Positions 6,417 to 54,940 of a DNA stretch of 54,940 nt are shown piece after piece. The notes under the pieces were generated by a model, which did no database searches, was not told the origin of the DNA, and worked only from the letters and a program-made list of their open reading frames with translations. The position numbers and the translations under genes are program-made. Within the stretch, counting starts at the first letter, position 1. Each line of letters starts with the position of its first letter. The stretch comes from an uncultured Proteiniphilum sp. (GTDB taxonomy: Bacteria > Bacteroidota > Bacteroidia > Bacteroidales > Dysgonomonadaceae), in contig CAZNRT010000002.1 of the NCBI GenBank assembly GCA_964575445.1, positions 6,328-61,267 of the forward strand, given 5' to 3'.

Positions 6417-6624
6417 AAAATAATTTTTTTGACGGGTTTCACATCACCGGGTGAATCGAAAATAATTTTTTTAGCGAGTTTTACAGTGCGGGGTGGATCG
6501 AAATAAAATTTTTGACGGGTTTTACATCACCGTGTGAATCGAAATAAAACTTTTTTGCCAGTTTCACATCACCGTGTGGATCGAAATAAAATTTTTGACG
6601 GGTTTCACAGTGATGTTTAGATTG
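6417..6624. repeat. Tandem array A: 5 copies, 41-42 bp unit, consensus AAATAAAATTTTTGACGGGTTTCACATCACCGTGTGRATCG
   Basis: Units start at 6417, 6459, 6501, 6542 and 6584. Confidence 0.95.
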
Positions 6625-6765
6625 CAATAATAAATTTATTTTCATTCCCCGTGCACTCGTAGCATAATGATTATTTATTTTTGATACCGTAAATGTTCGT
6701 TGTGAATGCTATCTATACCTAAATTTCTTTTGACTGCTAAAAGTGAAAATGAATAGTATTTTTTG

Positions 6766-6773
6766 TATTTTTG
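6766..6773 (+). promoter_or_regulatory. Bacteroidota -7 promoter element for ettA
   Basis: TATTTTTG (TAnnTTTG) about 30 nt upstream of the ATG at 6805. Confidence 0.6.
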
Positions 6774-6804
6774 CGCAAAGTGTAATTTAATAATACAAAA
6801 TAGT

Positions 6805-8487
6805 ATGTCAGACGACAAAAAGATTATTTTTTCGATGGTGGGCGTTAGCAAAACATTTCCACCACACAAACAAGTTTTGAAAGATATCTATCTTTCGTTT
6901 TTCTATGGAGCCAAAATTGGAATTATTGGTCTGAATGGTTCTGGAAAATCAACTTTATTAAAAATAATAGCAGGCATTGAGAAAGAATTTCAAGGAGAAA
7001 TAGCCTCAGATAAGAGTTTTTCAGTAGGTTATTTAGAACAAGACCCTAAGCTTGACCCAAGCAAAACAGTCATAGAGATTGTTCGTGAGGGTGTAAAGCC
7101 TATTATTGATATGCTTGCCGAGTATGAAGAGATAAATCTTAAGTTTGGATTGCCCGAATATTATGAGGATGAGGATAAGATGAATGGTCTCTTTGCACGC
7201 CAAGCCACACTTCAAGACCAATTGGATGCGGTGGATGCATGGAGTATCGATAATCGCCTTGACCGTGCTATGGACGCACTTCGCTGTCCGCCTGAAGATC
7301 AGCCAGTGAGCGAACTATCTGGAGGTGAAGCACGCCGTGTAGCACTATGCAGACTATTGCTACAAGAGCCTGATGTGTTGCTGCTTGATGAGCCCACCAA
7401 CCACTTGGACGCCGAATCAATTGATTGGCTCGAAATGCACTTGCAACAATATAAAGGCACAGTGATTTGTATTACTCACGACCGCTACTTCCTTGATCAT
7501 GTGGCTGGATGGATTTTGGAACTTGACAGAGGAGAGGGTATCCCTTGGAAAGGAAATTACACATCGTGGCTTGAGCAAAAAACCAAAAAGATGGAGCAAG
7601 AAGAGAAACAAGCAAGCAAACGCCGCAAAACTCTTGAGCGAGAGTTGGAATGGATCAACTTGGCTCCCAAAGCTCGACATGCAAAAGGTAAGGCTCGTTT
7701 GAACTCTTATGAGCAACTACTTAACCAAGATCAAAAGGAGAGAGAAGAGAAATTAGAAATTTTTATTCCAAATGGTCCTCGTTTGGGCAATAAAGTGATA
7801 GAGGCTCATGGAGTATCCAAAGCATTTGGTGACAAACTATTATTTGATGACTTGAACTTTGTGTTGCCACCCAATGGCATTGTGGGAGTGATAGGACCCA
7901 ATGGTGCTGGAAAAACAACTCTTTTTAGATTGATTCAGGATATCGAGAAAGCCGATAAAGGAATATTTGAAGTGGGTGAAACAGTAGTAACAGCTTACGT
8001 AGATCAGGCACACGAAGCAATAGATCCAACCAAAACTGTATATCAGGTAGTATCTGATGGTGCAGATTTTATTAGAGTAGGGGGTAGAGAGATTAATTCG
8101 AGAGCATATCTATCTCGTTTCAACTTTACTGGTGCTGATCAAGAAAAACTTTGTGGTATTTTGTCTGGTGGTGAGCGAAATAGACTTCACCTTGCATTGA
8201 CTCTAAAGGCGGAGGCTAACGTATTGCTTCTTGATGAGCCCACCAACGATATTGACGTAAACACATTGCGTGCTTTGGAAGAGGGGCTTGAAAACTTTGC
8301 GGGTTGCGCAGTAGTTATTTCCCACGACCGTTGGTTCTTAGACAGAATCTGTACTCATATCTTAGCTTTTGAGGGCAACTCAGAGGTGTTTTATTTTGAG
8401 GGTTCTTATAGTGAATATGAAGAGAACAAGAAAAGAAGATTAGGAAACGTAGAGCCCAAAAGAGTGAGATACAGAAAGCTACAATAA
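6805..8487 (+). CDS. ettA: ABC-F translational throttle ATPase EttA
   Basis: Two ABC domains (GLNGSGKST, GPNGAGKTT, LSGGE twice, LLLDEPTN twice), no transmembrane segments. Start moved to MSDDKK. Confidence 0.93.
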   Translation: MSDDKKIIFSMVGVSKTFPPHKQVLKDIYLSFFYGAKIGIIGLNGSGKSTLLKIIAGIEKEFQGEIASDKSFSVGYLEQDPKLDPSKTVIEIVREGVKPIIDMLAEYEEINLKFGLPEYYEDEDKMNGLFARQATLQDQLDAVDAWSIDNRLDRAMDALRCPPEDQPVSELSGGEARRVALCRLLLQEPDVLLLDEPTNHLDAESIDWLEMHLQQYKGTVICITHDRYFLDHVAGWILELDRGEGIPWKGNYTSWLEQKTKKMEQEEKQASKRRKTLERELEWINLAPKARHAKGKARLNSYEQLLNQDQKEREEKLEIFIPNGPRLGNKVIEAHGVSKAFGDKLLFDDLNFVLPPNGIVGVIGPNGAGKTTLFRLIQDIEKADKGIFEVGETVVTAYVDQAHEAIDPTKTVYQVVSDGADFIRVGGREINSRAYLSRFNFTGADQEKLCGILSGGERNRLHLALTLKAEANVLLLDEPTNDIDVNTLRALEEGLENFAGCAVVISHDRWFLDRICTHILAFEGNSEVFYFEGSYSEYEENKKRRLGNVEPKRVRYRKLQ

Positions 8488-8504
8488 GAGGTCTGAAATA
8501 AGCT

Positions 8505-10079
8505 ATGGTGAATAAATCCATTACTGCTTTATTATTATTTTTTTTATGCTTCAATATACATGCCCACAATATAATATTGGAGGGCATTGTATATGATGCA
8601 AAGCTTAATATCCCTATACCTGATGCCGAAGTGTATGTGGAAGGCACCTACATTGGAACAACGACTAATAGTGTTGGCAAATTCTATCTTTCCGTCCACG
8701 ATTCGTTATCAAATTATAATTTAGTAGTTAGCGCACATGGGTATATGCCTGTGCATCTCCCAATTGAGATTGTGAAAGCTCCACTTATTGAGATTTTCTT
8801 AGACATTGATTATCGAAAAGAAATAGAGAGCCACGAAAGCAATGGTGGTTTTGCAAATTATATAGATAAAGCACTCACATTTGTAATGAATGATTGGGTG
8901 CCACTTGGAAAGAAAGAGACAAATAAATTTGATTTCGGAAGGCTGCAAACAATACCAACAATAAATCCTATAGAGGGATTTAGATTAAGAGGTGGCATAG
9001 CATCCAATTCTCGTTTTAGCCCACATTTTTTTACTAAAGGATATATAGCATACGGTTTCAAAGATCAAAAAATTAAATATAGAGCTGAAGCCATATACTC
9101 ATTCAACAACAAAGTATATCATGACGATGAGTTTCCAATAAATAAGCTTAGCATGATATATGAAGATGATATTTATTCTCCTGGCGAGATGCATCCACGA
9201 GCAATGAATGATCTGCTATTGGTAACCTACAAGCGATCTAAAAATGAAACCACATATCGAAACTTTGCAGAAATTAATTATGACAGAGAGTATCAAAATG
9301 GTTTCAGGCATACGTTGTGGTTGCGAAAATCATATCTGAGACCTCAGGGCAATTTGCATTTCAATAAATTATCGCCTGATGAATCTTATGCAAGTGCAAT
9401 CAATAATTCCGAATTGGGTATTAGCTTTTTATGGTTTGGCAATAAGGAATATTCTCAAAACAAGCGTATAAGAACTCCACTGAATATTACAGCTCCATTA
9501 ATTCTGTTTTCCCATGCTGTGGGGTTAAAAAACTTTATGGGTGGAGAGACCTCATATCATAGAAGCGAGCTATCTCTTCAAAAACGATTTAAGATTGATG
9601 ATATAGCCACCGCAGATGTAGTGGGAGAGATAGCAAAAGTTTGGAATCAGGTGCAGTTTCCTTTATTAGTATATCCCAACCAACGTCACAAGTTTTATAT
9701 AGAAAATAATGCTTTCTTTTTGAGCCGGTCGCTTGAATTTGTGGCAGATCAGCAGGCTACCCTAAGAGCCACTTTTGTGGGAAAAAATCTGTGGCTCAAT
9801 AAAGTTGATTTCTTGAAAAAATTGGGCGTTAAAGAATTGATTTCATTCAGAGCCAGCTACGGCAGTTTGAGTGAAAAGAATATTCCAACTAAATACAATA
9901 GTCTTTATGCAATTCCTAATCAATCTCACCAATACGAATATGGCATTCCATATATCGAAGGTACTATCGGGATTACTAATATTTTAGGACTATTTCGTTT
10001 GGAGTATGTGCATAGATTCAACTATCGAAATTATCCTAATGCTATTTTAGGAGCCCTGAGATTAGATATTATTATTTAG
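8505..10079 (+). CDS. Exported protein: CarboxypepD_reg-like N-terminal domain plus DUF5686-like outer-membrane region
   Basis: Signal peptide; GIVYD...IPDAEV...GTTTNSVGKF domain; NPIEGFRLR, YIAYGFKDQKIKY and PYIEGTIGITNI blocks. Confidence 0.7.
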   Translation: MVNKSITALLLFFLCFNIHAHNIILEGIVYDAKLNIPIPDAEVYVEGTYIGTTTNSVGKFYLSVHDSLSNYNLVVSAHGYMPVHLPIEIVKAPLIEIFLDIDYRKEIESHESNGGFANYIDKALTFVMNDWVPLGKKETNKFDFGRLQTIPTINPIEGFRLRGGIASNSRFSPHFFTKGYIAYGFKDQKIKYRAEAIYSFNNKVYHDDEFPINKLSMIYEDDIYSPGEMHPRAMNDLLLVTYKRSKNETTYRNFAEINYDREYQNGFRHTLWLRKSYLRPQGNLHFNKLSPDESYASAINNSELGISFLWFGNKEYSQNKRIRTPLNITAPLILFSHAVGLKNFMGGETSYHRSELSLQKRFKIDDIATADVVGEIAKVWNQVQFPLLVYPNQRHKFYIENNAFFLSRSLEFVADQQATLRATFVGKNLWLNKVDFLKKLGVKELISFRASYGSLSEKNIPTKYNSLYAIPNQSHQYEYGIPYIEGTIGITNILGLFRLEYVHRFNYRNYPNAILGALRLDIII

Positions 10080-10160
10080 ACCTTACTATTATTTATCTTT
10101 AAAAATACTTTTTTATATATTGGATTTCCCCTTTCATTAAAAAAGTAAAATAAAAAGCCA

Positions 10161-10168
10161 TACCTTTG
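10161..10168 (+). promoter_or_regulatory. -7 promoter element for wza-wzc
   Basis: TACCTTTG matches TAnnTTTG. Confidence 0.6.
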
Positions 10169-10244
10169 TCGGCTTGAAATTAAAATTATAAACTGTAATA
10201 GGATAGTATCTATCCTGAATGAATTGTTTTACAATCAATAAATT

Positions 10245-11051
10245 ATGAGAAAACTAAATTATTTGTGGATTATAGCTTTTGTGGCTATACTAATGAGCGG
10301 GTGTGGCTCCTCCAAAAAGGTAGCATACCTCCAAAAATCTGAGGATATTACAGAAGAAGAATACGCTGTGCAATTGACGCCAATGTATGAGGCACGCATA
10401 ATGCCTAAAGATATATTGACAATTACAGTATCTACGAGCGACCCAGAAGCGGCAAGACCATTTAATATCACTGTGCCAATCTCGGAGACTGGGAGTATGC
10501 AACGTATTACTACTCAAACTCAATTAAGCACATATTTGGTAGATAATAAGGGGCAAATCAACTTTCCCGTTATAGGAATGATTACTCTAAAAGGTAAAAC
10601 AAATCGCGAAGCTGAACAGGAAATTGCAAATCTTCTAAAACCATTCATTAAGGAAGAACCATTAGTGATTGTAAAATTTGGCAACTACAAAATATCTGTA
10701 TTAGGAGAGGTATCTCATCCTGGCTCTTTTACTGTAACTCAAGAGAAAATCAATATTTTAGAGGCATTGGCAATGGCTGGCGATATGACTATTTATGGCG
10801 TGCGAGATAATGTAAAGATTATTCGTGAAGATGCTAATGGCAATAAGAGAATTATGCAATTGGATTTGAATAATCCTTACTTAGTGTTTACACCAGATTA
10901 TTATCTACAGCAAAATGATGTAATATATGTAGAGCCCAACAAAGTGAAGGCACAAAATGCAAGAATTGGTGCTGCAACATCATTGTGGATTTCTGGAATA
11001 TCCATAGCCGTGACAGTCACAAACTTATTGATTAATATACTAAAAAAATAA
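10245..11051 (+). CDS. wza: Polysaccharide export lipoprotein (Wza/Poly_export family)
   Basis: Lipobox LMSGC; YLVDNKGQINFPVIG; SLBB motif VLGEVSHPG; LQQNDVIYVEP. Confidence 0.88.
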   Translation: MRKLNYLWIIAFVAILMSGCGSSKKVAYLQKSEDITEEEYAVQLTPMYEARIMPKDILTITVSTSDPEAARPFNITVPISETGSMQRITTQTQLSTYLVDNKGQINFPVIGMITLKGKTNREAEQEIANLLKPFIKEEPLVIVKFGNYKISVLGEVSHPGSFTVTQEKINILEALAMAGDMTIYGVRDNVKIIREDANGNKRIMQLDLNNPYLVFTPDYYLQQNDVIYVEPNKVKAQNARIGAATSLWISGISIAVTVTNLLINILKK

Positions 11052-11055
11052 ATTA

Positions 11056-13419
11056 ATGGAAAAACCGCAAAACATACCTGAACTTACATCAGGTCAAGAG
11101 AATGACTCATTTTCTATTGTGGAAATAGTAGGTAAATATGTCAAGCACTGGAAATGGTTTATAGCTTCTATTGTTTTGATAATGGCAATTGCCATAGTAT
11201 ATTTGCGCTACTCAACACCAATTTACACCGTCACATCTGACATAAAACTGAAGGACGCGGGCACAGCAAAAGGAATGCCAAGCGGAATGATGATTGAAGA
11301 GATTGCCATGATAGGCGCAGTTGACAATATTGCAGATGAAGCTGAGGTGATCAGATCGCGCACTATTGTACGTACAACTATTAATAGGCTCAATCTTCAT
11401 ACATCATATATTGTAGAAGGACGTATAAAAAGTAGCGACTTGTATAAGAAGAGCCCCGTAGTGGTGGGAATGGAACAAAGCCAATTAGATAGTTTGACTG
11501 CACCAGTGGAGTTCTCAATGATATTCGATGATAAAGATGTTCTGCATATTAAAGGAATAATAGGTGGAGTAGTTGCCGACACTACTTTTGGGATGTTGCC
11601 CGCACTACTTAAAACTCCAGTTGGCAATATTAGCTTTGTAAGACGTGATGGTATTGAAAGAAACACCTCGCTACTAAATGTAATAATTGAAAATCCAAAC
11701 TCAGTTATAAGCAGATATCAAAAAGATTTGACCATCGTTTCAAAAAATCCGCGCGCTCGTTCAGCAGTACTCACAATGACATTCAATACTCCATTTACTG
11801 AAAAAGGGAGTGATTTTCTTACTACCCTTGTTGATGTTTACAACAATGAGATGATTGAAGACAAAAACATGGAGGCTCGCAATACTCAAACATTTATTAA
11901 TGAGCGTTTGGCTATTATTGATACAGAACTTGGTCATGCAGATTCAAATGTGGAGCAATATAAGCAGTCTCAGGGTTTGACAGATATGCAGGTGGATTTG
12001 CAACGCAATATGCAGATGGGTAGTCAATATGAGCAACAGCTTGTGAAAGTGGAAACACAGCTTAGCGTTGTAAGCTCTCTTGGTGGATACGTTAAAGACC
12101 CTTTGAATAAAGATAAACCAATTCCGAGCAATATAGGTATAGATGATCCAACACTTGTGGCAACAGCAAACGAGTACAACAAGCTATTGCTTGAGCGTGA
12201 ACGAATGTCACAAAGTATGACTGATGAGAACCCCGCAATGAAAAGACTAAATGAACAAATTGCAGGATTAAGATCAAACATCAATTCATCAATATCGAGC
12301 GTGCAACAAGGATTGAATATTCAGCGAAGAGATGCACGCAATCAGGCAAGCATGTATGGTGGACGCTTGGGTACAATGCCTACTCAGGAAAGAGAGTTTG
12401 TTGATCTTACTCGTGAGCAACAGATTAAGCAAAATCTATTCCTTATGCTCCTTCAAAAACGTGAAGAGAATGCTCTCGCTCTGGCTGCAACCAGCAATAC
12501 TGCAAAGATATTGAATGAGGCAGTGATAGGGGGTAAAGTGTTCCCTAAAACTAAAATAATTTTATTAGCTGCATTCTTGTTGGCTTTAATCATTCCTGTA
12601 GGTATTATATATCTTTTAGATTTGCTTCACTTTACAATCCGCACACGAGCTGATGTTGAGCGAGTATCTAAGTTGTCAATATTGGCAGAGATTCCATCTC
12701 ATGATGATGATACAAATGTGGTTGTTTCCGAAAACAAGACTTCTGAGTTGGATGAAGCTTTCCGTATGTTGCGTACCAATCTATTGTTTACTTTGGGCAA
12801 AGACAAGCAAGTTGTAATATTTACTTCCACAGTGTCTGGCGAAGGAAAAACTTTCGTTTCAATTAATACCGCAATTAGTCTTTCACTTATTAATAAAAAA
12901 GTTCTGTTGATTGGTGGTGACTTGAGAAGACCTCGATTGTCTGAGCATCTAAACTTGAAGTTTGATAAAGGTTTGACAAACTATTTGTCTGGTTTTGAAA
13001 CTAATTTGGATAAACTAATTGTTCCTTCAAATATATCAGACAACTTGTTTATAATGCCAGCAGGTCCTATTCCACCTAATCCTGCGGAGCTTATGTCACG
13101 CCAAACATTGGATGATGCAATAGCAGAGCTTAGAACTAAATTTGATTATGTCATCATAGACTCAGCCCCTGCAAGCCAGGTTACTGATACATTAATTATG
13201 AACCGCATTTCGGATGCTACTGTATATGTGGCACGGGCTAACTACTCTCATAAGCACAATTTGCTATTTGCAAATGAATTGTATTCTCATAACAAGCTTA
13301 CTAACATGACCCTATTAATTAATGATATCAAAGATTTCCGCTCAGGATATGGGTACGGATATGGATATGGATACGGATATGGATATGATTCAAAAAAGAA
13401 GAAAAAAGTAAAGAAATAA
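11056..13419 (+). CDS. wzc: Polysaccharide co-polymerase / tyrosine autokinase (Wzc)
   Basis: Two transmembrane segments around a coiled-coil loop; EAFRMLRTNL; Walker A GEGKT; DLRRP; IIDSAP; C-terminal (GY)7 tyrosine cluster. Confidence 0.92.
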   Translation: MEKPQNIPELTSGQENDSFSIVEIVGKYVKHWKWFIASIVLIMAIAIVYLRYSTPIYTVTSDIKLKDAGTAKGMPSGMMIEEIAMIGAVDNIADEAEVIRSRTIVRTTINRLNLHTSYIVEGRIKSSDLYKKSPVVVGMEQSQLDSLTAPVEFSMIFDDKDVLHIKGIIGGVVADTTFGMLPALLKTPVGNISFVRRDGIERNTSLLNVIIENPNSVISRYQKDLTIVSKNPRARSAVLTMTFNTPFTEKGSDFLTTLVDVYNNEMIEDKNMEARNTQTFINERLAIIDTELGHADSNVEQYKQSQGLTDMQVDLQRNMQMGSQYEQQLVKVETQLSVVSSLGGYVKDPLNKDKPIPSNIGIDDPTLVATANEYNKLLLERERMSQSMTDENPAMKRLNEQIAGLRSNINSSISSVQQGLNIQRRDARNQASMYGGRLGTMPTQEREFVDLTREQQIKQNLFLMLLQKREENALALAATSNTAKILNEAVIGGKVFPKTKIILLAAFLLALIIPVGIIYLLDLLHFTIRTRADVERVSKLSILAEIPSHDDDTNVVVSENKTSELDEAFRMLRTNLLFTLGKDKQVVIFTSTVSGEGKTFVSINTAISLSLINKKVLLIGGDLRRPRLSEHLNLKFDKGLTNYLSGFETNLDKLIVPSNISDNLFIMPAGPIPPNPAELMSRQTLDDAIAELRTKFDYVIIDSAPASQVTDTLIMNRISDATVYVARANYSHKHNLLFANELYSHNKLTNMTLLINDIKDFRSGYGYGYGYGYGYGYDSKKKKKVKK
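13345..13386 (+). repeat. Hexanucleotide repeat (GGRTAY)7 encoding the Wzc tyrosine cluster
   Basis: ggatat gggtac ggatat ggatat ggatac ggatat ggatat. Confidence 0.9.
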
Positions 13420-13443
13420 TTTTTCAGAAATTATAATATCAAC

Positions 13444-13496
13444 AAAAAAAACGTTTGTCAATACTCTTACAAGTATAATGACAAACGTTTTTTTTT
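13444..13496. terminator. Bidirectional intrinsic terminator (wzc / sdaA)
   Basis: A-run + ACGTTTGTCA ... TGACAAACGT + T-run between convergent genes. Confidence 0.85.
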
Positions 13497-13518
13497 ATAT
13501 ATAGTTTCAGTTAGATTA

Positions 13519-14736: not shown

Positions 14737-14849
14737 ATCGTGAGTTTCAATGAAAAAGGTTAAAGTAAAAAGGTTAGAGCCACAATAATATTTGCTGCTC
14801 TTCCCTTTAGCCTTTAACCCTTTTTGCTTGTTATATTTTATATTGATTA

Positions 14850-17399: not shown

Positions 17400-17430
17400 A
17401 GATTTAAATTAATTGATTTATGTATAAGCA

Positions 17431-26923: not shown

Positions 26924-26997
26924 GGGGGATTAGCTCATCTGGCTAGAGCGTTTGACTGGCAGTCAAAAGGTGATCGGTTCGAGTCCGATATTCTCCA
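26924..26997 (+). tRNA. tRNA-Ala (anticodon GGC)
   Basis: Acceptor stem GGGGGAT/ATTCTCC with G3:U70; anticodon arm TTTGA-CTGGCAG-TCAAA; T-loop TTCGAG; CCA not encoded. Confidence 0.96.
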
Positions 26998-27038
26998 CAA
27001 TCTTAAACTGTAACTTACCACAAAATTGAAACACAATG

Positions 27039-27073
27039 AAGAGACAATTATGATTAGCATAGTTGTCTCTTTT
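27039..27073 (+). terminator. Intrinsic terminator after tRNA-Ala
   Basis: AAGAGACAATTATG / CATAGTTGTCTCTT stem followed by a T-rich tail. Confidence 0.7.
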
Positions 27074-27427
27074 AATTTTATGCCATTCTCGATGCTTAAC
27101 TTAGGCGTAAACTTCATAGCGAAAATAGAACAACATAGCCTAACTCATATCAGAGTAAGATTGCTTAGGATTACTGCTCAGGTATTACTAAACGTTGAAA
27201 AGAAGAATGATGTAAATATATTTAGACCTTCGTCAAGTACTTAGCTGAATGATATAAAATTAGAATTAACACCAAAACACAACTCGGCGAATAGCTAAAA
27301 ATTTATTTTTTACTTGGTAGGGTGTTGTTTGGATAATAGAAAAAATAAAAAGGGCTTGATTCATTGTTGCCATACCTTACAAAAATATTTTTTCACTAAA
27401 AATAGATGCTTTGCATGACGAAAAGTA

Positions 27428-27721
27428 GTGAATAATGGTTTTGTAAAGCGTGGCGGAAGCTAAAAAAAAGTGAATGATGGTTTTGTAAAGCATTGCGAGT
27501 ACAAATAAAAAGTGAATAATGGTTTTGTAAGGTGTGGCGAGTAGTTGAAAGTTGTGAATAGTGGTTTTGTAAAGCATGGCGGGTGAGTAAAAATAGTGAA
27601 TAGTGGTTTTGTAACCCTTGTCGCATCATTGAAACTTGTGAATGGTGGTTTTGTAAAGCGTGTTGGATAATAAAAAAAAGTGAATGGTGGTTTTGTAAGT
27701 TGTGTCGTATTTTGAAATTTA
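27428..27721. repeat. Tandem array B: 7 copies, exact 42-bp period, 19-bp core GTGAATRRTGGTTTTGTAA plus a 23-bp diverged part
   Basis: Cores start at 27428, 27470, 27512, 27554, 27596, 27638 and 27680. Confidence 0.97.
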
Positions 27722-27945
27722 TTTTTTGCCGTCTAAAACAAGTATTACGGATACGTGAAATTTATTTTTGGTGTAAAGCACATATAAGTTCAGTTATTTA
27801 AAAAATTGTGTCGCACCTACGACATATAATTTGAATACTCAAAAAAAATTATTGCTCTTGACAAGTAATCTGACGAGGGGTACAAAAATATTTATCCCAG
27901 CATCATCTAAACAGGGGACTATTCAGGGGATTATTCATCAGATTG

Positions 27946-27977
27946 TTTGTATTTCTCAAAATAATGATGTAATTTTG
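27946..27977 (+). promoter_or_regulatory. Sigma-A promoter for rplU-rpmA
   Basis: TTTG (27946) - 20 nt - TAATTTTG (27970): canonical Bacteroidota -33/-7 spacing. Confidence 0.75.
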
Positions 27978-43876: not shown

Positions 43877-43978
43877 TTTAGTCGTTTCTATTTATATTGT
43901 GATACAAATATATTAATTATTTTTCATTTGTTCTGTTTTCATCTTTCGCTCATCTTCCAATATCTTATCTAATTGTGA

Positions 43979-44875
43979 TCACGAAATAGAAACCTTTCTT
44001 GATGTTTTCTTTTTGATAACCATAGTTATTACGGTGGCTGCAACAAATGGAAATGTCAACTGAGTGAGACCTGAAACAAACATTCCAATAGCAATTACTA
44101 ATGAAAGAATCACAGATACAATAGACCATACTACACCTGTCGTATTTTTATTGGCAAATACTATAGCACATAACACAGCATTATAACTAAAAAGCCCATA
44201 AAACACCAAATCGGTTGGCATTGACAATGTCAGAGCTATAACACCTGACAAAATCGACCCCACAAGCGCATAAATTGATGCAATAGGTGAGTTTATCATG
44301 ATTCCAACAAAGAAGATAACGCCCACAATCAATTTTTCTTGAAATATTACCTGTCCGATTCCTCTAAAAGCAAATGTATATCCCTCTGTTATTGCCTCAT
44401 TATTGTTCAACAAGTGTGAAGGAGCTATCGGGTATAAGTTATTAATCAGATAGAGAATACCCCATGTCACCAACACAAATGGAAATGTAAATGCTGGTAT
44501 CTTTTTCACAATAAAATAATGCTGCAACATTGCTGCAAGCATTGAACCAATAATTATAATCACCCAAACCAACACTTGTGGCTCATAGAATAAAGTTAGT
44601 GCCACACCCACCAAGGCTGCACTAAAACCATACAACCCTGCATCAATCTCTTTTCTATCGTATTTAAGCAAAACAGCTATTAAGTTACCACTAACAACCG
44701 ACACAACTGTAGCAATTGCCATTGTGTATGATCCTATTGATATCCCAATCAAAAACAGCAAACCAGTTATAGAGTTTTCTTGCAACATGATTTGCCCTAT
44801 CCCCTTCAGCAGAACTGAAATATAGGGCATTCTTTCTGAAATGTATAAATTGATTCTACTTGATATTGTATGCAT
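43979..44875 (-). CDS. Urea transporter (UT family)
   Basis: Duplicated GIGQ motif, GLYGFS / GLFSYNA, and TFPFV twice; hydrophobic. Confidence 0.88.
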   Translation of the reverse strand: MHTISSRINLYISERMPYISVLLKGIGQIMLQENSITGLLFLIGISIGSYTMAIATVVSVVSGNLIAVLLKYDRKEIDAGLYGFSAALVGVALTLFYEPQVLVWVIIIIGSMLAAMLQHYFIVKKIPAFTFPFVLVTWGILYLINNLYPIAPSHLLNNNEAITEGYTFAFRGIGQVIFQEKLIVGVIFFVGIMINSPIASIYALVGSILSGVIALTLSMPTDLVFYGLFSYNAVLCAIVFANKNTTGVVWSIVSVILSLVIAIGMFVSGLTQLTFPFVAATVITMVIKKKTSRKVSIS

Positions 44876-44896
44876 TATTTGTAAAATTATTATTTA

Positions 44897-46354: not shown

Positions 46355-46375
46355 CTTTCTTTTAGGCTACTTTTT

Positions 46376-48274
46376 TTATTCAACGTTGCTCACGGTCAAG
46401 CTCTTCTCCATATTCTTTTTATATATGAAAGGTAAGATTACTCGCTCGGCAAGTGATTGCTCAAGATATTTGTCCTGCTCCATTATATCCCCCATCAAAT
46501 ATTTCTGCAACATCAATCTGGCTATTGGCACAGCATTCGTCGCACCAAAACCACCATTTTCCACTATCACGGCTATTGCCACTTTAGGATTATCTTTTGG
46601 TGCAAAGCCAATAAATAACGAGTGGTCGGCACCATGTGGGTTTTCAGCTGTTCCTGTTTTTCCACACACTGTCAAATGGGGTTCCATATTTACTCTCCTA
46701 CAAGTACCATTAGTTACTGCGTCCGCCATTCCAGCAACAGTAAGCTCATAATGAGCTCTATCAATTCCTGATTCTCTTCTCTTAGAATATAATGTGTCCA
46801 ATGGTGCACCTTTTCTTTCCTTCACCACATGAGGCTTATAGTAAAATCCCCGATTGGCAATAAGAGCCGAAAAGTTGGCAAGTTGAATTGGAGTTGCCAA
46901 TATTTCTCCTTGCCCAATAGCAATTGAAATAATATTATGGGCATTCCATTTTTCTGTCTTAAAGGAGTTCGAGTAATATTTACTATTTGGTATAAACCCT
47001 CTTTTTTCTGAAGGCAAATCCACATCCAATTTATATCCAAAGCCCATATTTACCATATGATCTTTCCACACTTCAAATGCGTCTATGTTGCTTGCATATT
47101 TTGTCCGATTACTTATCATAGCATTCAATCCATAACAAAAAAACGCATTACATGATGTGGCTAATGATGGTTGAAGATTCAAAGGCGATGGATGCCCATG
47201 GCATCTTGGTCTCCCCCCCAATGGTGGATATCCACCATAACAACTATATCTTGTGTCTGGACTAATGATCCCTTCTTGCAGAAAAATCAAACCCTGCGAT
47301 GGTTTGAATGTTGAACCTGGCGGATACAATCCTGATGTTGCTCTGTTAATCAACGGTTTGTAAGGATCTCTCTCAAGTAGTAGATAGTTTTTGCTAAAGT
47401 TCTTGCCAGTTAGCAAAGATGGGTCGTAAGATGGTGCTGCCACCATACATAGTATTTCTCCCGTTTCGGGCTCAATCATAATTATTGACCCAATTTTATT
47501 CTGCATGAGATATTCGCCATATGCCTGCAAGTCTATATCAACAGAAAGAGTAAGATCACGACCCGAAATGGGTTGCTTATCATGTTCCCCATCTTTATAT
47601 TTGCCCTGCACTCGCCCATGTGCATCTCGCAACAATACTTCTACTCCTTTTTCTCCTCTCAGGTCTTCTTCATGCGAAAGCTCAATTCCCGATTTTCCAA
47701 CATAATCGCCTCTCACATAATATGGGTCGGCTGCCATCTTGTTTTTATCGACCTCTGCCACATATCCCAAAATCAATCCCATATTGGGATATTTATATTG
47801 TCGCTCAGTTCTGTTTTGAATATATATGCCTGGAAACTTGTAAAGCTTTTCTTGCAACAAGCCATACTCCTCAATATCGAGTTGGGTTTTAAATATTTGA
47901 GGTGTATATGACGAGTATCCAGGATTTCTTCTCCTATCTTTCATATCAGCATCAAGCTGCAAAAAGGTTGGAATATCAATGTTAAGGGTGTTACAAAAAT
48001 CAAGTGTATCAAAATCGCCCATTTCTCTCACCACCATCATTACATCATAGGTGGGCTTGTTATATACGATCAACTTCCCAAGCCTATCATATATTGATCC
48101 TCGAGCTGGATAAAGAGTTTTGCTATAAAAGGCGTTACTATCAGCATATTTTCTATACTCTGGGCTCAGTATTTGCAATTTAAACAATTGGATAGAATAA
48201 ACCACAATAATCATTGCCACAATGGCAATAATTACATATTTTCTATTTCCATATTTATTTTTCTCGTTAGCCAA
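46376..48274 (-). CDS. mrdA: Penicillin-binding protein 2
   Basis: PARGSIYDR, SxxK (STFK), SCN, KTGT. Confidence 0.95.
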   Translation of the reverse strand: MANEKNKYGNRKYVIIAIVAMIIVVYSIQLFKLQILSPEYRKYADSNAFYSKTLYPARGSIYDRLGKLIVYNKPTYDVMMVVREMGDFDTLDFCNTLNIDIPTFLQLDADMKDRRRNPGYSSYTPQIFKTQLDIEEYGLLQEKLYKFPGIYIQNRTERQYKYPNMGLILGYVAEVDKNKMAADPYYVRGDYVGKSGIELSHEEDLRGEKGVEVLLRDAHGRVQGKYKDGEHDKQPISGRDLTLSVDIDLQAYGEYLMQNKIGSIIMIEPETGEILCMVAAPSYDPSLLTGKNFSKNYLLLERDPYKPLINRATSGLYPPGSTFKPSQGLIFLQEGIISPDTRYSCYGGYPPLGGRPRCHGHPSPLNLQPSLATSCNAFFCYGLNAMISNRTKYASNIDAFEVWKDHMVNMGFGYKLDVDLPSEKRGFIPNSKYYSNSFKTEKWNAHNIISIAIGQGEILATPIQLANFSALIANRGFYYKPHVVKERKGAPLDTLYSKRRESGIDRAHYELTVAGMADAVTNGTCRRVNMEPHLTVCGKTGTAENPHGADHSLFIGFAPKDNPKVAIAVIVENGGFGATNAVPIARLMLQKYLMGDIMEQDKYLEQSLAERVILPFIYKKNMEKSLTVSNVE

Positions 48275-48785
48275 TTATACGTCCCTTTCTATAAAAAAGT
48301 GAGTCTATAGATAGTAAAAGAATTGTAGTTAACAAAACGGAGGAACCGATTCTAATAACTGTTTTAGTTATATCAAATAATGTTAGAGCATCGATTAGGA
48401 AAAGCAATGTGTGATGAAGCAGCACCATTGTCAAAGTATATTTTATGAAAGCCCCAGCATTGCCTCTTATGCTTGGTACAATAATATCCAATTCATTCTT
48501 GGGATAAAATAGAGGTGCAATTATCACTCTCAGAGTAGCAACAATAGTAATTGCTGCTGCATTAACACCTGGCGTATTGAGAAAGATATCAATAATTAAT
48601 CCCATCAAGAATGATAATAATATCACATAAAATCTATTCCTGCCAAAGGGTAGTTTAATTACAAAATAAACATAGATAAGTGGAGAAGCAACACCAAACA
48701 ATGTTACATGATTGAAAACAAGAACCTGCAACAGCACCAATAAGACAAACAAAAAAATCTCTCTAAAAACATCTACTACTCTCAT
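48267..48785 (-). CDS. mreD: Rod shape-determining protein MreD
   Basis: Hydrophobic 172 aa protein with GLIIDIF; lies between mreC and mrdA. Confidence 0.88.
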   Translation of the reverse strand: MRVVDVFREIFLFVLLVLLQVLVFNHVTLFGVASPLIYVYFVIKLPFGRNRFYVILLSFLMGLIIDIFLNTPGVNAAAITIVATLRVIIAPLFYPKNELDIIVPSIRGNAGAFIKYTLTMVLLHHTLLFLIDALTLFDITKTVIRIGSSVLLTTILLLSIDSLFYRKGRIIG

Positions 48786-48786
48786 A

Positions 48787-49632
48787 TCAATTAATAGATT
48801 TTTCTAAATTGTTTTTCTCTTCAAAGTTCTTATCCTCAATGATCAATACACCCATCAAAGAATGAAAATCAGTAGCAAGATTTATATTCAGATTATTGAA
48901 GTTATCATCCTTCGATTGTGCCTTGTCTTTTATATATCCAATCACAATATCTTTTGGGAATATTCGAGAGAAGCTTGTCACAACAGTATCGCCCAATTCA
49001 AACACCTCATGTTTGGGGAGTTCGCCAATTTGTGCAATGCTCAGATCCTTTCCGTCCCAAGAAATTGAGCCCGAATTTTCTGAGTTCTTTAGCTTTGCAC
49101 TCAACCTGAATTTTGGATTAATAATAGGAATAATTACCGAATAGTTTTTTGATACAGTAAGCACCACCCCCACCACTCCGTTATTAGATACCACTCCCAT
49201 ATCAGACTTTACACCGTGTGCAGATCCTTTGTTGACAGTAATAAAATTATTATTTCCCGAGAAGCTCACATTCGTTACTTCAGCAGGAATAAAATTGAAC
49301 TGAGAACTCATATCAACTGAGTCTTTCAAAAAGGCATTAGTACTTAGAGTATCTAATTTTATATCATCAATATACGCTTTTAGAGAAGTCAATTCCCTCT
49401 CCAAATAGGCGTTATGTTCCAAAAGCTGTTTATTGTTTTGTTTGAGATGCATGAATGAGTTCACCTCGCTCGAAACATCAAACACCAAGCCCGCAGCATG
49501 ATTTGCAGAGCTCAAATATATGCTTCTTTGAAATGAGTTGTGGGTAAATACAAGATAGAAGCTGATAACAATTAATAAAATTGCTACCAGCCATGAACTA
49601 TTTCTTATAATGAATTGGAAAAGATTCCTCAT
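48787..49632 (-). CDS. mreC: Rod shape-determining protein MreC
   Basis: N-terminal transmembrane segment, coiled coil, ITVNKGS..GV..DMGV, GDTVVTS. Confidence 0.93.
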   Translation of the reverse strand: MRNLFQFIIRNSSWLVAILLIVISFYLVFTHNSFQRSIYLSSANHAAGLVFDVSSEVNSFMHLKQNNKQLLEHNAYLERELTSLKAYIDDIKLDTLSTNAFLKDSVDMSSQFNFIPAEVTNVSFSGNNNFITVNKGSAHGVKSDMGVVSNNGVVGVVLTVSKNYSVIIPIINPKFRLSAKLKNSENSGSISWDGKDLSIAQIGELPKHEVFELGDTVVTSFSRIFPKDIVIGYIKDKAQSKDDNFNNLNINLATDFHSLMGVLIIEDKNFEEKNNLEKSIN

Positions 49633-49690
49633 ACCAATAATTACCCATAAGCTTGAATTATCTCATAAAACATGAGACAAAACGACTTAC

Positions 49691-50716
49691 TTATCTCATC
49701 AAGAAAGTAAACTTATCAATATTTTTTAGAGCAATACCAGTTCCTTTAGCTACCACATGCAATGGATCGTCCACTACTTTAAATGGAATACCAATCTTAT
49801 CGGTTAGACGCTTTGCCAATCCTCTCAAGTGAGCACCACCACCTGTCAAATAAATACCATTGCGCACAATATCTGCATATAGCTCTGGTGGCGTCTGCTC
49901 CAAAGCACTCAACACGGCCGAGTCAATCTTTGATATTGACTTCTCAAGGCAATGTGCAATCTCTTGATACGATATTGGCACATCCATCGGAAGCGAAGTC
50001 ATACGGTTAGGACCATGAACAACGAAATCTTCAGGCGGATTATCAAGTTCTGTTAGCACCGAACCAACATTTATCTTGATTTGTTCCGCAGTTCTTTCTC
50101 CCACTTTCATACTATGTTGGCGACTCATATAGTCCATAATATCCTCAGTAAGATCATCACCTGCAATCTTTATCGATTTGTTGGAAACAATACCACCAAG
50201 CGAAATCACAGCAATCTCTGTAGTTCCACCACCTATATCCACTATCATATTTCCTTCAGGTATCTCCACATCTAAGCCAATGCCCAGCGCAGCAGCCATA
50301 GGCTCAAACAGCATATACACATCACGTCCACCAGCATGCTCAGCAGAGTCACGAACCGCTCTTATTTCTACTTCCGTGCTGCCCGATGGGATACATATTA
50401 CTACACGAAGAGATGGAGAAAACAACCCACCTCTATTTTTGGTTGCCATTTTAATCATACCCCTAATCATCTGCTCTGCAGCATTAAAATCTGCTATCAC
50501 GCCATCTCTCAAGGGTCTTACGGTAATAATATTTTCGTGCGTCTTTCCGTGCATCTGTCTTGCCTTCTCTCCAAGAGCAAGCATCTTGTCGGTCTTTCTA
50601 TCTAAAGCCACAATAGATGGTTCATCCAAAAGGATTTTACCATTATTGCCCACTATTATTGAATTGGCGGTACCAAGGTCCATAGCCAATTCTTGCGTAA
50701 ATGAAAATAACCTCAT
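49691..50716 (-). CDS. mreB: Actin-like MreB
   Basis: DLGTAN, PLRDGVIADF, EPMAAA, DIGGGTTE, LTGGGA. Start moved to MRLFSF. Confidence 0.97.
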   Translation of the reverse strand: MRLFSFTQELAMDLGTANSIIVGNNGKILLDEPSIVALDRKTDKMLALGEKARQMHGKTHENIITVRPLRDGVIADFNAAEQMIRGMIKMATKNRGGLFSPSLRVVICIPSGSTEVEIRAVRDSAEHAGGRDVYMLFEPMAAALGIGLDVEIPEGNMIVDIGGGTTEIAVISLGGIVSNKSIKIAGDDLTEDIMDYMSRQHSMKVGERTAEQIKINVGSVLTELDNPPEDFVVHGPNRMTSLPMDVPISYQEIAHCLEKSISKIDSAVLSALEQTPPELYADIVRNGIYLTGGGAHLRGLAKRLTDKIGIPFKVVDDPLHVVAKGTGIALKNIDKFTFLMR

Positions 50717-50750
50717 ATTCTTATCTTTATGCTTGTAACTATTCTTATTA

Positions 50751-52274
50751 TTAGTGCTTAAAGTGTCTAACACCTGTAGTCACCATCGACATATTATTGT
50801 TGTTACAATAATCAATAGACTCCTGATCTTTTATGGAGCCCCCAGGTTGTATTACCGCAGTAATTCCTGCTTTCCCAGCAATCTCAACTGAGTCGGGAAA
50901 TGGGAAAAATGCATCTGATGCCATTACAGCACCATTCAAGTCAAAGTTGAAAGTATTAGCTTTTTCAATAGCTTGTTTCAATGCATCCACTCTCGATGTC
51001 TGCCCCGTTCCACTTGCTATCAACTGTTTGTTTTTAGCCAACACAATAGCGTTAGACTTTGTGTGTTTCACCAAAATATTTGCGAACAACAAGTCATCTA
51101 TCTCGCTTTCCGATGCTGATTTAGAAGTCACTTGTTTTATATCCTCTTTGGTTTCCACGTTTTTATCCTTATCTTGCACCAACACGCCGTTAAGCAACGA
51201 ACGGTATTGAGTGCTATTTAGTGCCTTCACATCAGCTTTTTGTTTCAAGATAATTCTATTTTTCTTTTCGAATAGGATACTAAGAGCCTCTTTTGTGTAT
51301 TCTGGAGCAATCAATACCTCAAAGAATATCTCACTAATAGCCTTTGCGGCACCCTCATCCACCTTTCTGTTAGTAACTACTATCCCTCCGAAAGCCGAAA
51401 TTGGGTCAGCTGCCAATGCAGCATCCCAAGCCTCTTTCACAGTTGGTCGGCAAGCCATGCCGCAAGCATTATTGTGCTTCAATATTGCCAAAGCTGTTTC
51501 ATCAAAATCACTGATTAGCGAAACTGCCGCATCAATATCCAATAAGTTGTTGTAAGAGATCTCCTTTCCATGAAGTTGTTCAAACATTTCATTGAAGTCT
51601 CCATAAAAGTTACCTTGTTGATGTGGATTTTCTCCATATCTCAATTCTTTTTTGTCATCAGCCACAACTCTCAATGACGAGCTGTTGTCGCCATCAAAAT
51701 AATTAAATATTGCAGAATCATAAGCTGAAGAAACAGCAAAAGCATCTTTCGCAAAATCTCGCCTATCTTCAATATCGCTTACTCCATTTTTATCTATAAG
51801 CAATTGTGCAAGCTTAGCATACTGTTTCTTAGATGGCACAATCACCACATCATTAAAATTCTTTGCTGCTCCTCTAATTAGGGATATGCCGCCAATATCT
51901 ATTTTCTCAATAATATCAGCTTCATCAGCGTTAGACGCCACAGTGTCCTCAAAAGGATATAGATCTACTATTACTAAATCAATTGATGGAATATTATATG
52001 ATTTTATAGTCTTTTTATCAGAGTCATCCTCGCGACGATACAAAATTCCACCAAATATTTTTGGGTGTAAAGTTTTTACTCTTCCACCCAATATAGATGG
52101 ATAGTTTGTAATCTCCTCTACCGACTCACAGTCATAACCTAATGACTGAATAAAGTCACGTGTACCACCAGTTGAAATTAATTTTACGTTTAAATCGTTT
52201 AGTGATTTCAATATATCATCCAATCCATCCTTATGATATACTGAAATCAGTGCTGATTTGATTTTCTTTGACAT
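50751..52274 (-). CDS. purH: Bifunctional AICAR transformylase / IMP cyclohydrolase
   Basis: STGGT, GGRVKTLHP, DIGG, LRYGENPHQ, SDAFFPF, RHFKH. Confidence 0.97.
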   Translation of the reverse strand: MSKKIKSALISVYHKDGLDDILKSLNDLNVKLISTGGTRDFIQSLGYDCESVEEITNYPSILGGRVKTLHPKIFGGILYRREDDSDKKTIKSYNIPSIDLVIVDLYPFEDTVASNADEADIIEKIDIGGISLIRGAAKNFNDVVIVPSKKQYAKLAQLLIDKNGVSDIEDRRDFAKDAFAVSSAYDSAIFNYFDGDNSSSLRVVADDKKELRYGENPHQQGNFYGDFNEMFEQLHGKEISYNNLLDIDAAVSLISDFDETALAILKHNNACGMACRPTVKEAWDAALAADPISAFGGIVVTNRKVDEGAAKAISEIFFEVLIAPEYTKEALSILFEKKNRIILKQKADVKALNSTQYRSLLNGVLVQDKDKNVETKEDIKQVTSKSASESEIDDLLFANILVKHTKSNAIVLAKNKQLIASGTGQTSRVDALKQAIEKANTFNFDLNGAVMASDAFFPFPDSVEIAGKAGITAVIQPGGSIKDQESIDYCNNNNMSMVTTGVRHFKH

Positions 52275-52302
52275 GTATGAATTTGTTTATTTTAAAGGGT
52301 TA

Positions 52303-52310
52303 CAAAGGTA
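52303..52310 (-). promoter_or_regulatory. -7 promoter element for the purH-mre operon
   Basis: CAAAGGTA reads TACCTTTG on the minus strand. Confidence 0.6.
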
Positions 52311-52420
52311 TAAAATCTATCTATGATTATCATGATATTATGATGGTTTTTTAATCTCATGCTTTTGATTTCAGATTTGTTTAGAAGTAGATACCAAATT
52401 TGCAATTTAAAAACTATAAA

Positions 52421-52849
52421 TCATAAATCTAACCTATAGAAATTGGTATCTCTCACCACAAACCCCATGTTTCTATACATATTGTTTGCTGCCACCCGAG
52501 CAGGATTAGACGTAAGTTCAATCTTATAAGCATTATTATTGCGGGCAGTGTCTATAGCTTTATTCATTAGCATTGTGGCAATTCCTTTGCCTCGTGCACT
52601 CTCATCCACCATCACATCTTCAATGATTCCCTTCAGTCCTGTTGGTATTCTATACAGCACTATCGTGAGCGAACCCACAATTTTGCGATCATCATCTTTA
52701 GCTACAAACAAGTAAGTGGTTTCGGCACTTACTATATTATTCAAATCATCACTCGAGGGATAATCTGTATTGTTAGTAAGCTGTGGCACAAGCTTCTTGA
52801 ATGCCTCTACCACATCATTGTCTATCTCAGTTATTCGTTCTATCTTCAT
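52421..52849 (-). CDS. GNAT family N-acetyltransferase
   Basis: IEDVMVDESARGKGIA, LTSNPAR.AAN..Y...GF. Confidence 0.9.
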   Translation of the reverse strand: MKIERITEIDNDVVEAFKKLVPQLTNNTDYPSSDDLNNIVSAETTYLFVAKDDDRKIVGSLTIVLYRIPTGLKGIIEDVMVDESARGKGIATMLMNKAIDTARNNNAYKIELTSNPARVAANNMYRNMGFVVRDTNFYRLDL

Positions 52850-52936
52850 GTTTATAATTTAATACTCTTTTTATAACTACTTCTCACTTTGCAAGATCTT
52901 AATCCTCCAATATTCAATCAAATACAAAAACGTCGA

Positions 52937-52976
52937 AAGCGGCGACTCTCTATTAGTAAGAGAGAATCACCGCTTC
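52937..52976 (-). terminator. Hairpin after rpmE2
   Basis: AAGCGGCGACTCTCT ... AGAGAATCACCGCTT imperfect stem. Confidence 0.6.
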
Positions 52977-53001
52977 CAAGCTAAAATCTATTATGAAAGA
53001 C

Positions 53002-53256
53002 TTATTTTTTGTTGCGATTACCGTAGCGGCTCATGAACTTATCAACGCGACCTGCGGTATCTACCAATTTTTGTTTACCAGTATAGAATGGGTGCGATGC
53101 ACTTGTGATCTCTAACTTTACTAATGGGTAAGTAACACCATCAATTTCAATTGTTTCTCTTGAATTTACTGTAGAGCGTGAAATAAAAATTTCATCGTTT
53201 GAGATATCCTTAAACACAACTGGGCGATAATTGCTTGGATGTATTTCTTTTTTCAT
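53002..53256 (-). CDS. rpmE2: 50S ribosomal protein L31 type B
   Basis: [16 protein letters not shown]...[21 protein letters not shown]; no zinc-binding cysteines. Confidence 0.96.
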
Positions 53257-53407
53257 TGCTGTATATTTGTTATATTTTTTAGTTTCGTTATAATTTTCGG
53301 AATGCAAAGATAGGACAATTCATTTAATTACAAAAATTATTATCACTATTTTCCATCAAATCAGCATCAAAAGCTTAATTTTGCAGTCGATACTTTATGT
53401 TTGCATT

Positions 53408-54640
53408 ATGAAAATAGAAATTATTACAATAGGCGATGAGATTTTGATTGGTCAAATCTTAGACACCAATTCCACATGGATGGCATCAGAACTAACCAAG
53501 CTTGGGTTTGACATTGTGGCAATTACCTCAATTGGTGATAGCTCTCAAAGCATTACTAATGCCATAGATACTGCTTTCAATCGAGCTAATATTGTTTTGA
53601 TGACAGGTGGTATCGGTCCCACAAAGGATGACATCACCAAAGTCACACTTTGCTCATATTTCAATACTCACATGGTGTTTGACGAATCCGTAATGCATAA
53701 TATTGAGAAAATATTCGCAATCAAAAAATTTAATATCAACGAGCTAACTCGCAATCAAGCCTTTGTGCCTAACGATAGCAGAGTGATACAAAACACGGTT
53801 GGCACTGCCCCACTCCTTTGGTTCGAGAAAGAGAACAAAGTCTTAGTATCAATGCCTGGTGTGCCCTTCGAGATGAAAAACGCAATGAGCAATGAAATAA
53901 TTCCACAGCTCATCAAGCATTTTAGAGTTGACAACTATCAAAGTATCACTATATCAGTTTCAGGAATCACCGAGTCTGCCTTAGCAATGAAGTTAGAGGT
54001 TTTCGAAAACAACTTGCCCTCTTATGCTTCGCTTGCATATCTTCCATCCTACGGGCTGATCCGCTTGCGCTTGTCAATAAGAAGCAGCGGCAATGGGGCT
54101 AACCTCACATTATTGGCTGATGATCTAAAGCAGTTGGTCAATGATTATCTAATAGATGATATCGACAGACCAATTGAAGAGCTCTTAGGCACAATTTTAA
54201 AAGAAAAAGGACTATCATTGGCTACAGCCGAAAGTTGCACAGGTGGCAACATATCGCATCGCATCACTGAAATATCTGGCTCGTCAATATATTTCAGAGG
54301 TGGAGTAGTGTCATACGCCAACGAGGTTAAAGAAAACATATTAGGTGTGTCTCCCTCCACATTATATACATATGGTGCCGTTAGTGCGCAAGTTGCCGAA
54401 CAAATGGCTCAAGGAGTAGCCAATATTCTAAATACAGATTGTGCTATAGCCGTTACTGGAATTGCGGGACCAAATGGTGGAAGTGCCGAAAAACCAGTAG
54501 GTACTACATACATTAGCACCAAGCTTGGAGATAATATAACTACTGTGAAATATCAATTTGGCACCTCTCGCCAAGAAAATATAAACAGAGCAACCAACAT
54601 GGCCATATTGCAACTCATAAAAATGTTGACAATAAAGTAA
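53408..54640 (+). CDS. cinA: CinA / NMN deamidase-related protein
   Basis: IGDEILIGQILDTN, GGIGPTKDDIT, PGVPFEM, AESCTGG, TGIAGP. Confidence 0.94.
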   Translation: MKIEIITIGDEILIGQILDTNSTWMASELTKLGFDIVAITSIGDSSQSITNAIDTAFNRANIVLMTGGIGPTKDDITKVTLCSYFNTHMVFDESVMHNIEKIFAIKKFNINELTRNQAFVPNDSRVIQNTVGTAPLLWFEKENKVLVSMPGVPFEMKNAMSNEIIPQLIKHFRVDNYQSITISVSGITESALAMKLEVFENNLPSYASLAYLPSYGLIRLRLSIRSSGNGANLTLLADDLKQLVNDYLIDDIDRPIEELLGTILKEKGLSLATAESCTGGNISHRITEISGSSIYFRGGVVSYANEVKENILGVSPSTLYTYGAVSAQVAEQMAQGVANILNTDCAIAVTGIAGPNGGSAEKPVGTTYISTKLGDNITTVKYQFGTSRQENINRATNMAILQLIKMLTIK

Positions 54641-54705
54641 CCTTACACCATAATACATTAAGCAGAACTTATTTTTAGGCACTTATATGTAATATTTTCT
54701 TGCTA

Positions 54706-54940
54706 AATAATCTTTTTTTATCACTCTTGCTGATCAGCATAAGTGAGAATAATCTTTTTTAATCACTCATGTTGGTCAGCATGAACGGGAAAAATTGATT
54801 TTAATCATTCATGTTGGTCAGCATGAACGAGAATAATTGATTTTAATCACTCATGTTGGTCAGCATGAACGGGAAAAATCGTTTTCAATCACTCATGTTG
54901 GTCAGCATGGATGGGAATAATCTTTTTCAATCACTCATGT
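54706..54940. repeat. Tandem array C: at least 6 copies (runs off the window), exact 42-bp period, consensus AATAATCTTTTTYAATCACTCATGTTGGTCAGCATGAACGGG
   Basis: ATCA(C/T)TC anchors at 54720, 54762, 54804, 54846, 54888 and 54930. Confidence 0.97.

Follow-up and report, generated by a model that had tools for sequence, protein, structure and literature searches.

The stretch of DNA analysed here (the window, 54,940 bp) belongs to an uncultured Proteiniphilum sp., our source genome G000 (2.84 Mb in 228 contigs), and runs to the end of contig C2. It contains three intergenic arrays of tandem repeats, A, B and C, situated among ordinary host genes, and these arrays appear to be relatives of arrays that stand upstream of genes of the Pfam family DUF6261 (PF19775) elsewhere in the genome. 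Tandem Repeats Finder (TRF), run on the window and on the whole genome, gave a period of 42 bp for all three, which confirms the places and the period proposed in an initial annotation of this DNA, with units of 41–42 bp in array A. Array A (6418–6624, about five units; TRF 6418–6609, 4.6 copies, 78% matches) lies between a gene for a PRK13663 hypothetical protein (4696–6222, minus strand) and ettA (6787–8487, plus strand). Array B (plus strand; core 27427–27707, 6.5 units of 42 bp; TRF 27427–27698 or 27707, 6.5 copies, 75% matches) is found between a tRNA gene (26924–26997, plus strand; Ala-GGC in the identical copy of G001, the closest relative among those sampled) and rplU (L21; 28062–28373, plus strand). 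Array C (54706–54940, at least 5.6 units; TRF 5.6 copies, 87% matches) follows a cinA-family gene (53381–54640, plus strand) and is cut by the contig end.

Aligned with one another, the consensus units of A, B and C score no higher than shuffled ones (P 0.84, 0.78 and 0.056), as the initial annotation had supposed. It had also described each unit as an A/T block joined to an imperfect dyad; the A/T block was seen in the units of all three arrays, while the dyads did not stand up to statistics (see below). An assembly artefact is excluded for A and B, as contigs from other public runs reproduce both B (a 946-bp contig over 27141–28086, 1 difference) and A (5800–6549, 1 difference, and 6473–6670, none). 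In one run there was a joint skipping 6396–6747 that has just 28 bases on one side and may stem from a relative. RNA contigs, at low depth, covered only 27008–27226 and 27296–27468.

The three arrays belong to a larger family in G000. Matching of non-coding 10-mers gave 1264, 888 and 344 matches at lags 42, 43 and 41, while the adjoining lags 40 and 44 gave 13 and 51, and sharp peaks recur at multiples of lags 41–43, so that the expected genome-wide peak at 42 bp was indeed present. With TRF (period 40–44 or 82–87) we found 71 loci, or 62 after merging of neighbours and removal of one short-period locus, all with a period of 41–43 bp. An all-against-all BLAST of these arrays gave 14 components, nine of them with at least two members. 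Eight loci are linked to a gene as defined below, 24 are contig-internal without such a gene, and 30 are unlinked and near contig ends.

A gene family co-occurring with the arrays had been anticipated, and one was found, though outside the window. Clustering of the open reading frames (ORFs) adjoining G000 arrays gave one paralogous family, DUF6261; among eight array-adjacent members compared with Pfam, five were above the cut-off, one was just under it and two, one of them the protein encoded on C19, had no match. G000 has 17 PF19775 matches, or 18 genes by our own profile, at scattered sites. With an array-gene link defined as an array no more than 800 bp upstream of the gene, 8/13 DUF6261 genes with enough sequence had an upstream array, compared with 37/1685 other genes (Fisher p 1.5e-10). 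In other Bacteroidota an upstream array was found at 75/100 DUF6261 loci, with 0/100 at control lags and 4/97 downstream, and at 52/56, of which 50 had period 41, in a metagenome set that was held out (80 loci retrieved, N-terminus intact in 66); DUF6261 loci are related to each other, and the GTDB and metagenome sets represent one clade. The largest cluster of neighbouring genes covers 4/111 loci, i.e., there is no conserved neighbour. Among the sampled relatives, 11 arrays were found across four DUF6261-bearing genomes and none in ≈650 kb from seven genomes without a PF19775 match. There was also none in G010 (152 kb sampled, 2 matches) or in seven thinly sampled DUF6261-bearing genomes.

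Contig C2 has no PF19775 or own-profile match, and A, B and C each have a host gene at their gene-facing side, which points left in A and in C, in the latter at the cinA 3′ end. The arrays nevertheless have gene-linked counterparts elsewhere in G000. Array A (family F4) matches (70.6%) an array 259–482 bp upstream of a DUF6261 gene on contig C11, and array C (family F6) matches (67%) the array upstream of a DUF6261 gene on C3. The core of array B (family F7) lies within a 666-bp element (27248–27913, plus strand) that is a 91% copy of upstream sequence (positions −757 to −90) belonging to the DUF6261-family gene at C19:26752, without the gene. Identity is 98% in the core (276/281 columns, unit for unit) and 93% and 80% in the flanks. 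At its gene-distal edge B has an inverted partial unit (27369–27392, minus strand), a feature that is not general (2/55 arrays). Element B ends 57 bp upstream of a TAnnTTTG box of the host gene rplU (27970–27977, plus strand), and its C19 counterpart 45 bp upstream of the box of its own gene; a similar box belongs to ettA (6766–6773, plus strand). Both host boxes are common to G001, and we take this motif to be the Bacteroidetes promoter −7 element.

At the orthologous site of A the spacer of G001 is 322 bp shorter (651 vs. 329 bp compared) and at that of B 787 bp shorter (1177 vs. 390 bp compared), with no array at either, so the empty sites that had been expected were found. The span missing at the A site is approximately 6396–6721 and takes in degenerate inverted units at 6606–6657. 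G001 has no array after cinA either, and among 40 relatives element B gave only marginal matches of 36–39 bp, in two of them. A further locus, on C18, has kept its array, upstream region and last ≈170 bp of the gene while the gene middle is missing, as in an internal-deletion derivative. We therefore regard A, B and C as very probably orphan arrays of an undescribed gene-array module, and deletion of the gene followed by re-copying is the probable route by which gene-less arrays arose. The gene-facing side of such arrays meets a gene start in 23 cases, a gene end in 11 and a contig end in 13, with no fixed orientation to host genes. The tRNA-rplU spacer that holds array B is occupied in a relative (G004, L005:9241–9452) by another DUF6261-family gene, accompanied by an 84/42-bp array, and is possibly an insertion hot spot.

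Unit similarity between arrays follows the identity of the adjacent proteins. The mean score is 14.7 at ≥65% protein identity and 9.5 at 50–65%, and falls to chance below ≈35%, while the period stays at 41–43 bp even where similarity has reached chance. On a quick tree of 85 proteins, with long branches, the period changes at least 17 times and stays within 41–44, and a free scan of lags 30–60 gave a best lag of 41–43 in most loci. Since similarity decays while the period stays at 41–44, we conclude that the array families have a common descent in which sequence turns over and length is maintained. The length thus appears constrained, as first suggested. In place of one length fixed across truly unrelated sequences, each family seems from these comparisons to descend with a DUF6261 paralogue, with no independent convergence on 42 bp. 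Composite arrays (C1:60500–61200, C6:30290–30910 and C18:7370–8100), in which F2 units grade into F10 units at the same period, show the change from one family to another inside a single element. The F3 and F5 arrays (C19:3440–3556, C10:35117–35236, C102:1–117 and about ten more) have unrelated units and share a ≈110-bp gene-facing segment with promoter-like sequence; in C102 a DUF6261 gene lies 650 bp further.

The AlphaFold model of the DUF6261 protein is confident and all-helical (pLDDT 91.8, pTM 0.69) and has an extended N-terminal arm. A homodimer prediction scored 0.34 against a mark of 0.42. Foldseek searches of the PDB and viral libraries had no match at E ≤ 0.001, there was no sequence match in PDB, and the best VIA-align match (Z 9.9, rmsd 2.8, 107 aligned) was to generic four-helix bundles, within the background for helical proteins. 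Among 224 sequences R76 (94%), R171 (84%), K/R187 (93%) and R234 (77%) are conserved, as is a basic C-terminal helix, and no conserved catalytic set was seen in them.

The protein and its array covary. In one clade with 41-bp period, the identity of base 6 in the repeat palindrome goes with that of protein residue 11, with K/R for C, N/S/T for G and A/V/L for T. Palindrome sites were called with a requirement of 5/8 paired positions, which mildly favours symmetric sites and does not use the residue. In a column scan of 21 training loci (5 near-duplicates dropped) residue 11 ranked first for base 6. Used as a fixed prediction, the pairing was right in 38/39 callable held-out loci, and in 25/26 after removal of those ≥90% identical to training loci or to each other. 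Base 6 changes 11 times on a tree made without the N-terminus, and the residue class agrees in 46/48 rows. Independent pairs on starred branches follow the code in 5/5 cases for K/R-C and in 3–4/4 for N/S/T-G, with none opposite, and contrasting sister loci are seen, e.g., L170/L172 and L334/L339. For base 8, the strongest partner is residue 9. Because synonymous codons have no effect on the pairing and the coding region is unlike the array, the link is at the protein level. Lys and Arg pair with guanine on the partner strand and Val and Ala with the thymine methyl group, and this general protein-DNA chemistry fits the code.

The arrays are also positioned with respect to the promoter. A TAnnTTTG box within 200 bp was found between array and ATG in forward direction at 43/83 loci and in reverse at 10/83; a forward box before the array was seen at 22/83. 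In the 41-bp clade the box lies 46–52 bp before the ATG in 16/22 loci, and the lattice of 19-bp palindromes is in phase with it (12/17 within 0–6 of 41; held-out loci, 15/17 within 1–8). Dyads were found in 58% of 62 consensus units from DUF6261 arrays and in 16% of shuffled ones.

The array probably serves its own DUF6261 protein as a series of binding sites, an arrangement that would fix the length, with A, B and C as gene-less copies. As the residue changes in step with the repeat base, the protein likely binds its own array, and as it likely does so, unrelated repeats likely keep one length. The N-terminal arm would be the part with which each DUF6261 protein recognises its cognate site, and direct binding through this arm is likely. 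Upstream of its own promoter the protein might dock on the same face of the helix once per four turns, so that its size and packing on DNA would hold the period close to four helical turns; we lean slightly toward such same-face cooperative coating as what sets the period. Whether DUF6261 controls the promoter of its own gene is close to an even call, and we lean slightly against it. Protein and site would co-evolve into new, unrelated-looking array families, and orphan arrays, A, B and C among them, would be left behind by gene loss with re-copying. The paralogues of G000, whose sites are weakly palindromic, may work as the 41-bp clade does. The best reading of the sequences is that DUF6261 would be a new all-helical family of sequence-specific DNA-binding proteins.

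Several observations weigh against this interpretation. The fold matches no known DNA-binding family, and the residue-base code comes from a single clade, found in other genomes. Residue 11 was chosen from ≈230 columns × 3 bases, with a training z of 6.7 and 1/15 null maxima higher, and a sign test on the 5 independent pairs gave p 0.0625. Taken one by one, the dyads of the three arrays are non-significant against shuffled units (P 0.15, 0.31 and 0.13 for A, B and C), and array B has no convincing dyad. No above-threshold array was found at 5/13 DUF6261 genes of G000 or at 25/100 loci elsewhere, and G007, with 11 DUF6261 matches, had no array in the 239 kb sampled. The C19 protein is below the Pfam cut-off and is tied to the family by tblastn (1e-16 to paralogues above cut-off), while 30/54 unlinked loci lie near contig ends, where a DUF6261 gene could be off-contig. 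The array ends 10–1188 bp from the ATG, and a fixed promoter geometry is therefore not general.

The covariation would also suit binding to an RNA. The array could be transcribed, possibly antisense, to a repeated-hairpin RNA that is bound unit by unit in the way known from type III toxin-antitoxin systems, with gene-less arrays as orphan RNAs. The array does lie upstream of a lone gene, the inner palindrome positions keep Watson-Crick symmetry in 3–4 pair types, and at stem positions 3–8 of the sense strand A-C mismatches outnumber G-T (29 vs. 14), a lean to G-U on the antisense, with the sense strand C-rich in 44/63 arrays. A terminator is nonetheless found in the gap between array and gene at only 1/42 loci (after the gene at 17/40), and the promoter box is downstream of the array. 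Overall counts of G-T and A-C are balanced (90:101 and 108:95), neither strand folds better (34/63, p 0.51), and many dyads have a spacer of 0–2 nt (19/36). An Rfam scan of the window gave a single match, one tRNA, and PADLOC no defence family common to more than 1/63 members. Csm2, Cas13a and type IV Cas11 were considered as relatives of DUF6261 and rejected as weak single-member matches far below cut-off. We thus consider the hairpin RNA, one of the candidates first proposed, unlikely and less supported than a cognate protein-DNA array. Somewhat less likely still is that array and gene are a selfish mobile module whose coating recruits recombination or transposition functions of the host or of a helper, with gene-less arrays as non-autonomous derivatives similar to MITEs (miniature inverted-repeat transposable elements). 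The scattered paralogues, the lack of a conserved neighbour, the empty sites in G001, the dispersed 91% copy, the internal-deletion derivative and the size of the family (4873 clusters at 50% identity) would all fit. Such a module is compatible with binding of DUF6261 to its own array and differs in the purpose of the binding. However, element B, the only one tested, has no terminal inverted repeat (best local score 5 between 40-bp ends), element ends vary between copies, no catalytic residues are evident and the G001 empty sites are too diverged for a target duplication to be read. Transposase matches in G000 were two Y1 genes on one contig with their own 53-bp repeats and one DDE_Tnp_1 match. 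There is no RVT_1 match in G000, which also leaves the earlier idea of a templated-addition process less supported. In a search by tblastn with one member, a single query of low reach, plasmids and phages gave no match.

A sequence-independent structural role, in which phased A-tracts, cruciforms or a nucleoid-protein scaffold hitch-hike with DUF6261 genes, has been proposed for constant-length satellites (PMC8161180) and would agree with a period near 4 × 10.5 bp, with the A/T block in the window units and with the enrichment of gene-less arrays in divergent intergenic regions (12/22 vs. 55/242, p 0.003). It predicts neither the residue-base covariation nor the one-sided, phase-locked position, and arrays were absent from the sampled genomes without PF19775. 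A generic nucleoid scaffold, also among the initial proposals, is therefore improbable and less supported than a cognate protein-DNA array. Neutral minisatellites or decayed genes for 14-amino-acid repeats are very improbable. It is true that 42 is divisible by 3, that some G000 arrays overlap mechanically called ORFs and that B is free of stops in one frame. The reading is largely refuted by the linkage and the covariation. Also against it, stop codons close all six frames of A and C, periods of 41 and 43 are common, and the period switches repeatedly within its narrow range.

Constant length with variable sequence is known from the bacterial satellites of Subirana and Messeguer, with lengths of 20–21 and 52 nt, the latter in Firmicutes only (PMC8161180); both lengths are also treated in the accessible parts of PMC8625621 and PMC6749651. 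As there, several lineage-specific non-coding families have one length and unrelated sequences and are patchy between relatives. Compared on the main texts, the arrays described here differ in their period of 41–43 and in that every family tested can be followed back to a DUF6261 paralogue. The satellite authors suggest a protein that requires a constant repeat size and name none (PMC8161180). Another resemblance is to sopC of the F plasmid, where 43-bp direct repeats each contain a 16-bp inverted repeat bound by SopB, the product of the adjacent gene (PMC3177203, in the part available). Among DUF6261 arrays, phased repeats with an inverted repeat were seen in the 58% with dyads, and in A, B and C the inverted repeat is weak. 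DUF6261 differs, as far as that part describes sopC, in having no ParA-like partner or conserved neighbour, in its chromosomal multi-paralogue families and in an array upstream of the gene's promoter. The all-helical model had no ParB among the matches listed. The module's likely working principle, an adjacent gene product on phased palindromes, is already known from sopC.

Dispersed intergenic elements with internal tandem repeats are also known from another member of the Bacteroidales, Porphyromonas gingivalis, in which the repeats of MITEPgRS/MITE464 (41 nt in MITEPgRS) and BrickBuilt vary in copy number (PMC2575886, PMC4596501 and PMC5771137, in the portions available). Those elements carry terminal inverted repeats of insertion sequence (IS) type, unlike element B, and the portions of PMC2575886 and PMC4596501 available link no gene family to them. 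In type III toxin-antitoxin systems tandem repeats upstream of a single gene co-evolve with it (PMC3401426, as far as accessible). In comparison with that account, DUF6261 loci lack a terminator between array and gene, have the promoter at the opposite end of the array and show no match to a toxin family. CRISPR arrays differ as well: whole units of A, B and C repeat with no unique spacers, and the real CRISPR of G000 has a period of 64–67. As each of these systems has a defining feature that the gene-array module lacks, we rate the module as outside the known kinds. The HagB and HagC proteins of P. gingivalis are presumably DUF6261 proteins with 42-bp upstream repeats, although look-ups did not confirm this. 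No published description of the link between array and DUF6261 gene was found in a search with subscription journals mostly outside its coverage, and the literature on DUF6261/PF19775/IPR046228, as far as accessible within the same coverage, consisted of Streptococcus genomics only.

The satellite papers leave open why some bacteria have many unrelated satellite families with a single length. DUF6261 is a named candidate for the protein behind them, with a point prediction, one residue for one base pair. A bolder and more doubtful version is that DUF6261 may be a very large class of sequence-specific binders with an N-terminal residue-base code, which polymerise on four-turn arrays as a two-part selfish module and whose gene-less copies seed platforms by host promoters (rplU, ettA). 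If true, constant-length bacterial satellites would have their missing protein named, and natural orthogonal pairs of protein and site would become available in the thousands.

Some further observations were made in G000. Other dispersed intergenic repeats, with periods of 16–18/34/52, 11/22/33 and 8/16/24 (on C43, C55, C62, C67, C72, C143, C173, C224 and others), often abut 42-bp arrays or follow DUF6261 genes and may have partner genes of their own. The small contigs C191 and C193 contain the same gene (protein 100% identical) by slightly different terminal F8 arrays and could be strain variants or assembly duplicates. The CRISPR array mentioned above is very long (C11:157 to at least 18628, and C46:1–228) with a 30-bp repeat, and TRF shows blocks of its spacers as apparently repeated or near-identical. 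The two Y1_Tnp genes (RAYT-like) are in tandem with identical scores at C157:1548–3693, and their 53-bp repeats contain a short palindrome. Finally, the window itself carries at 75–4575 a type III restriction endonuclease gene (1609–4575) after a large ORF that probably encodes its methyltransferase.

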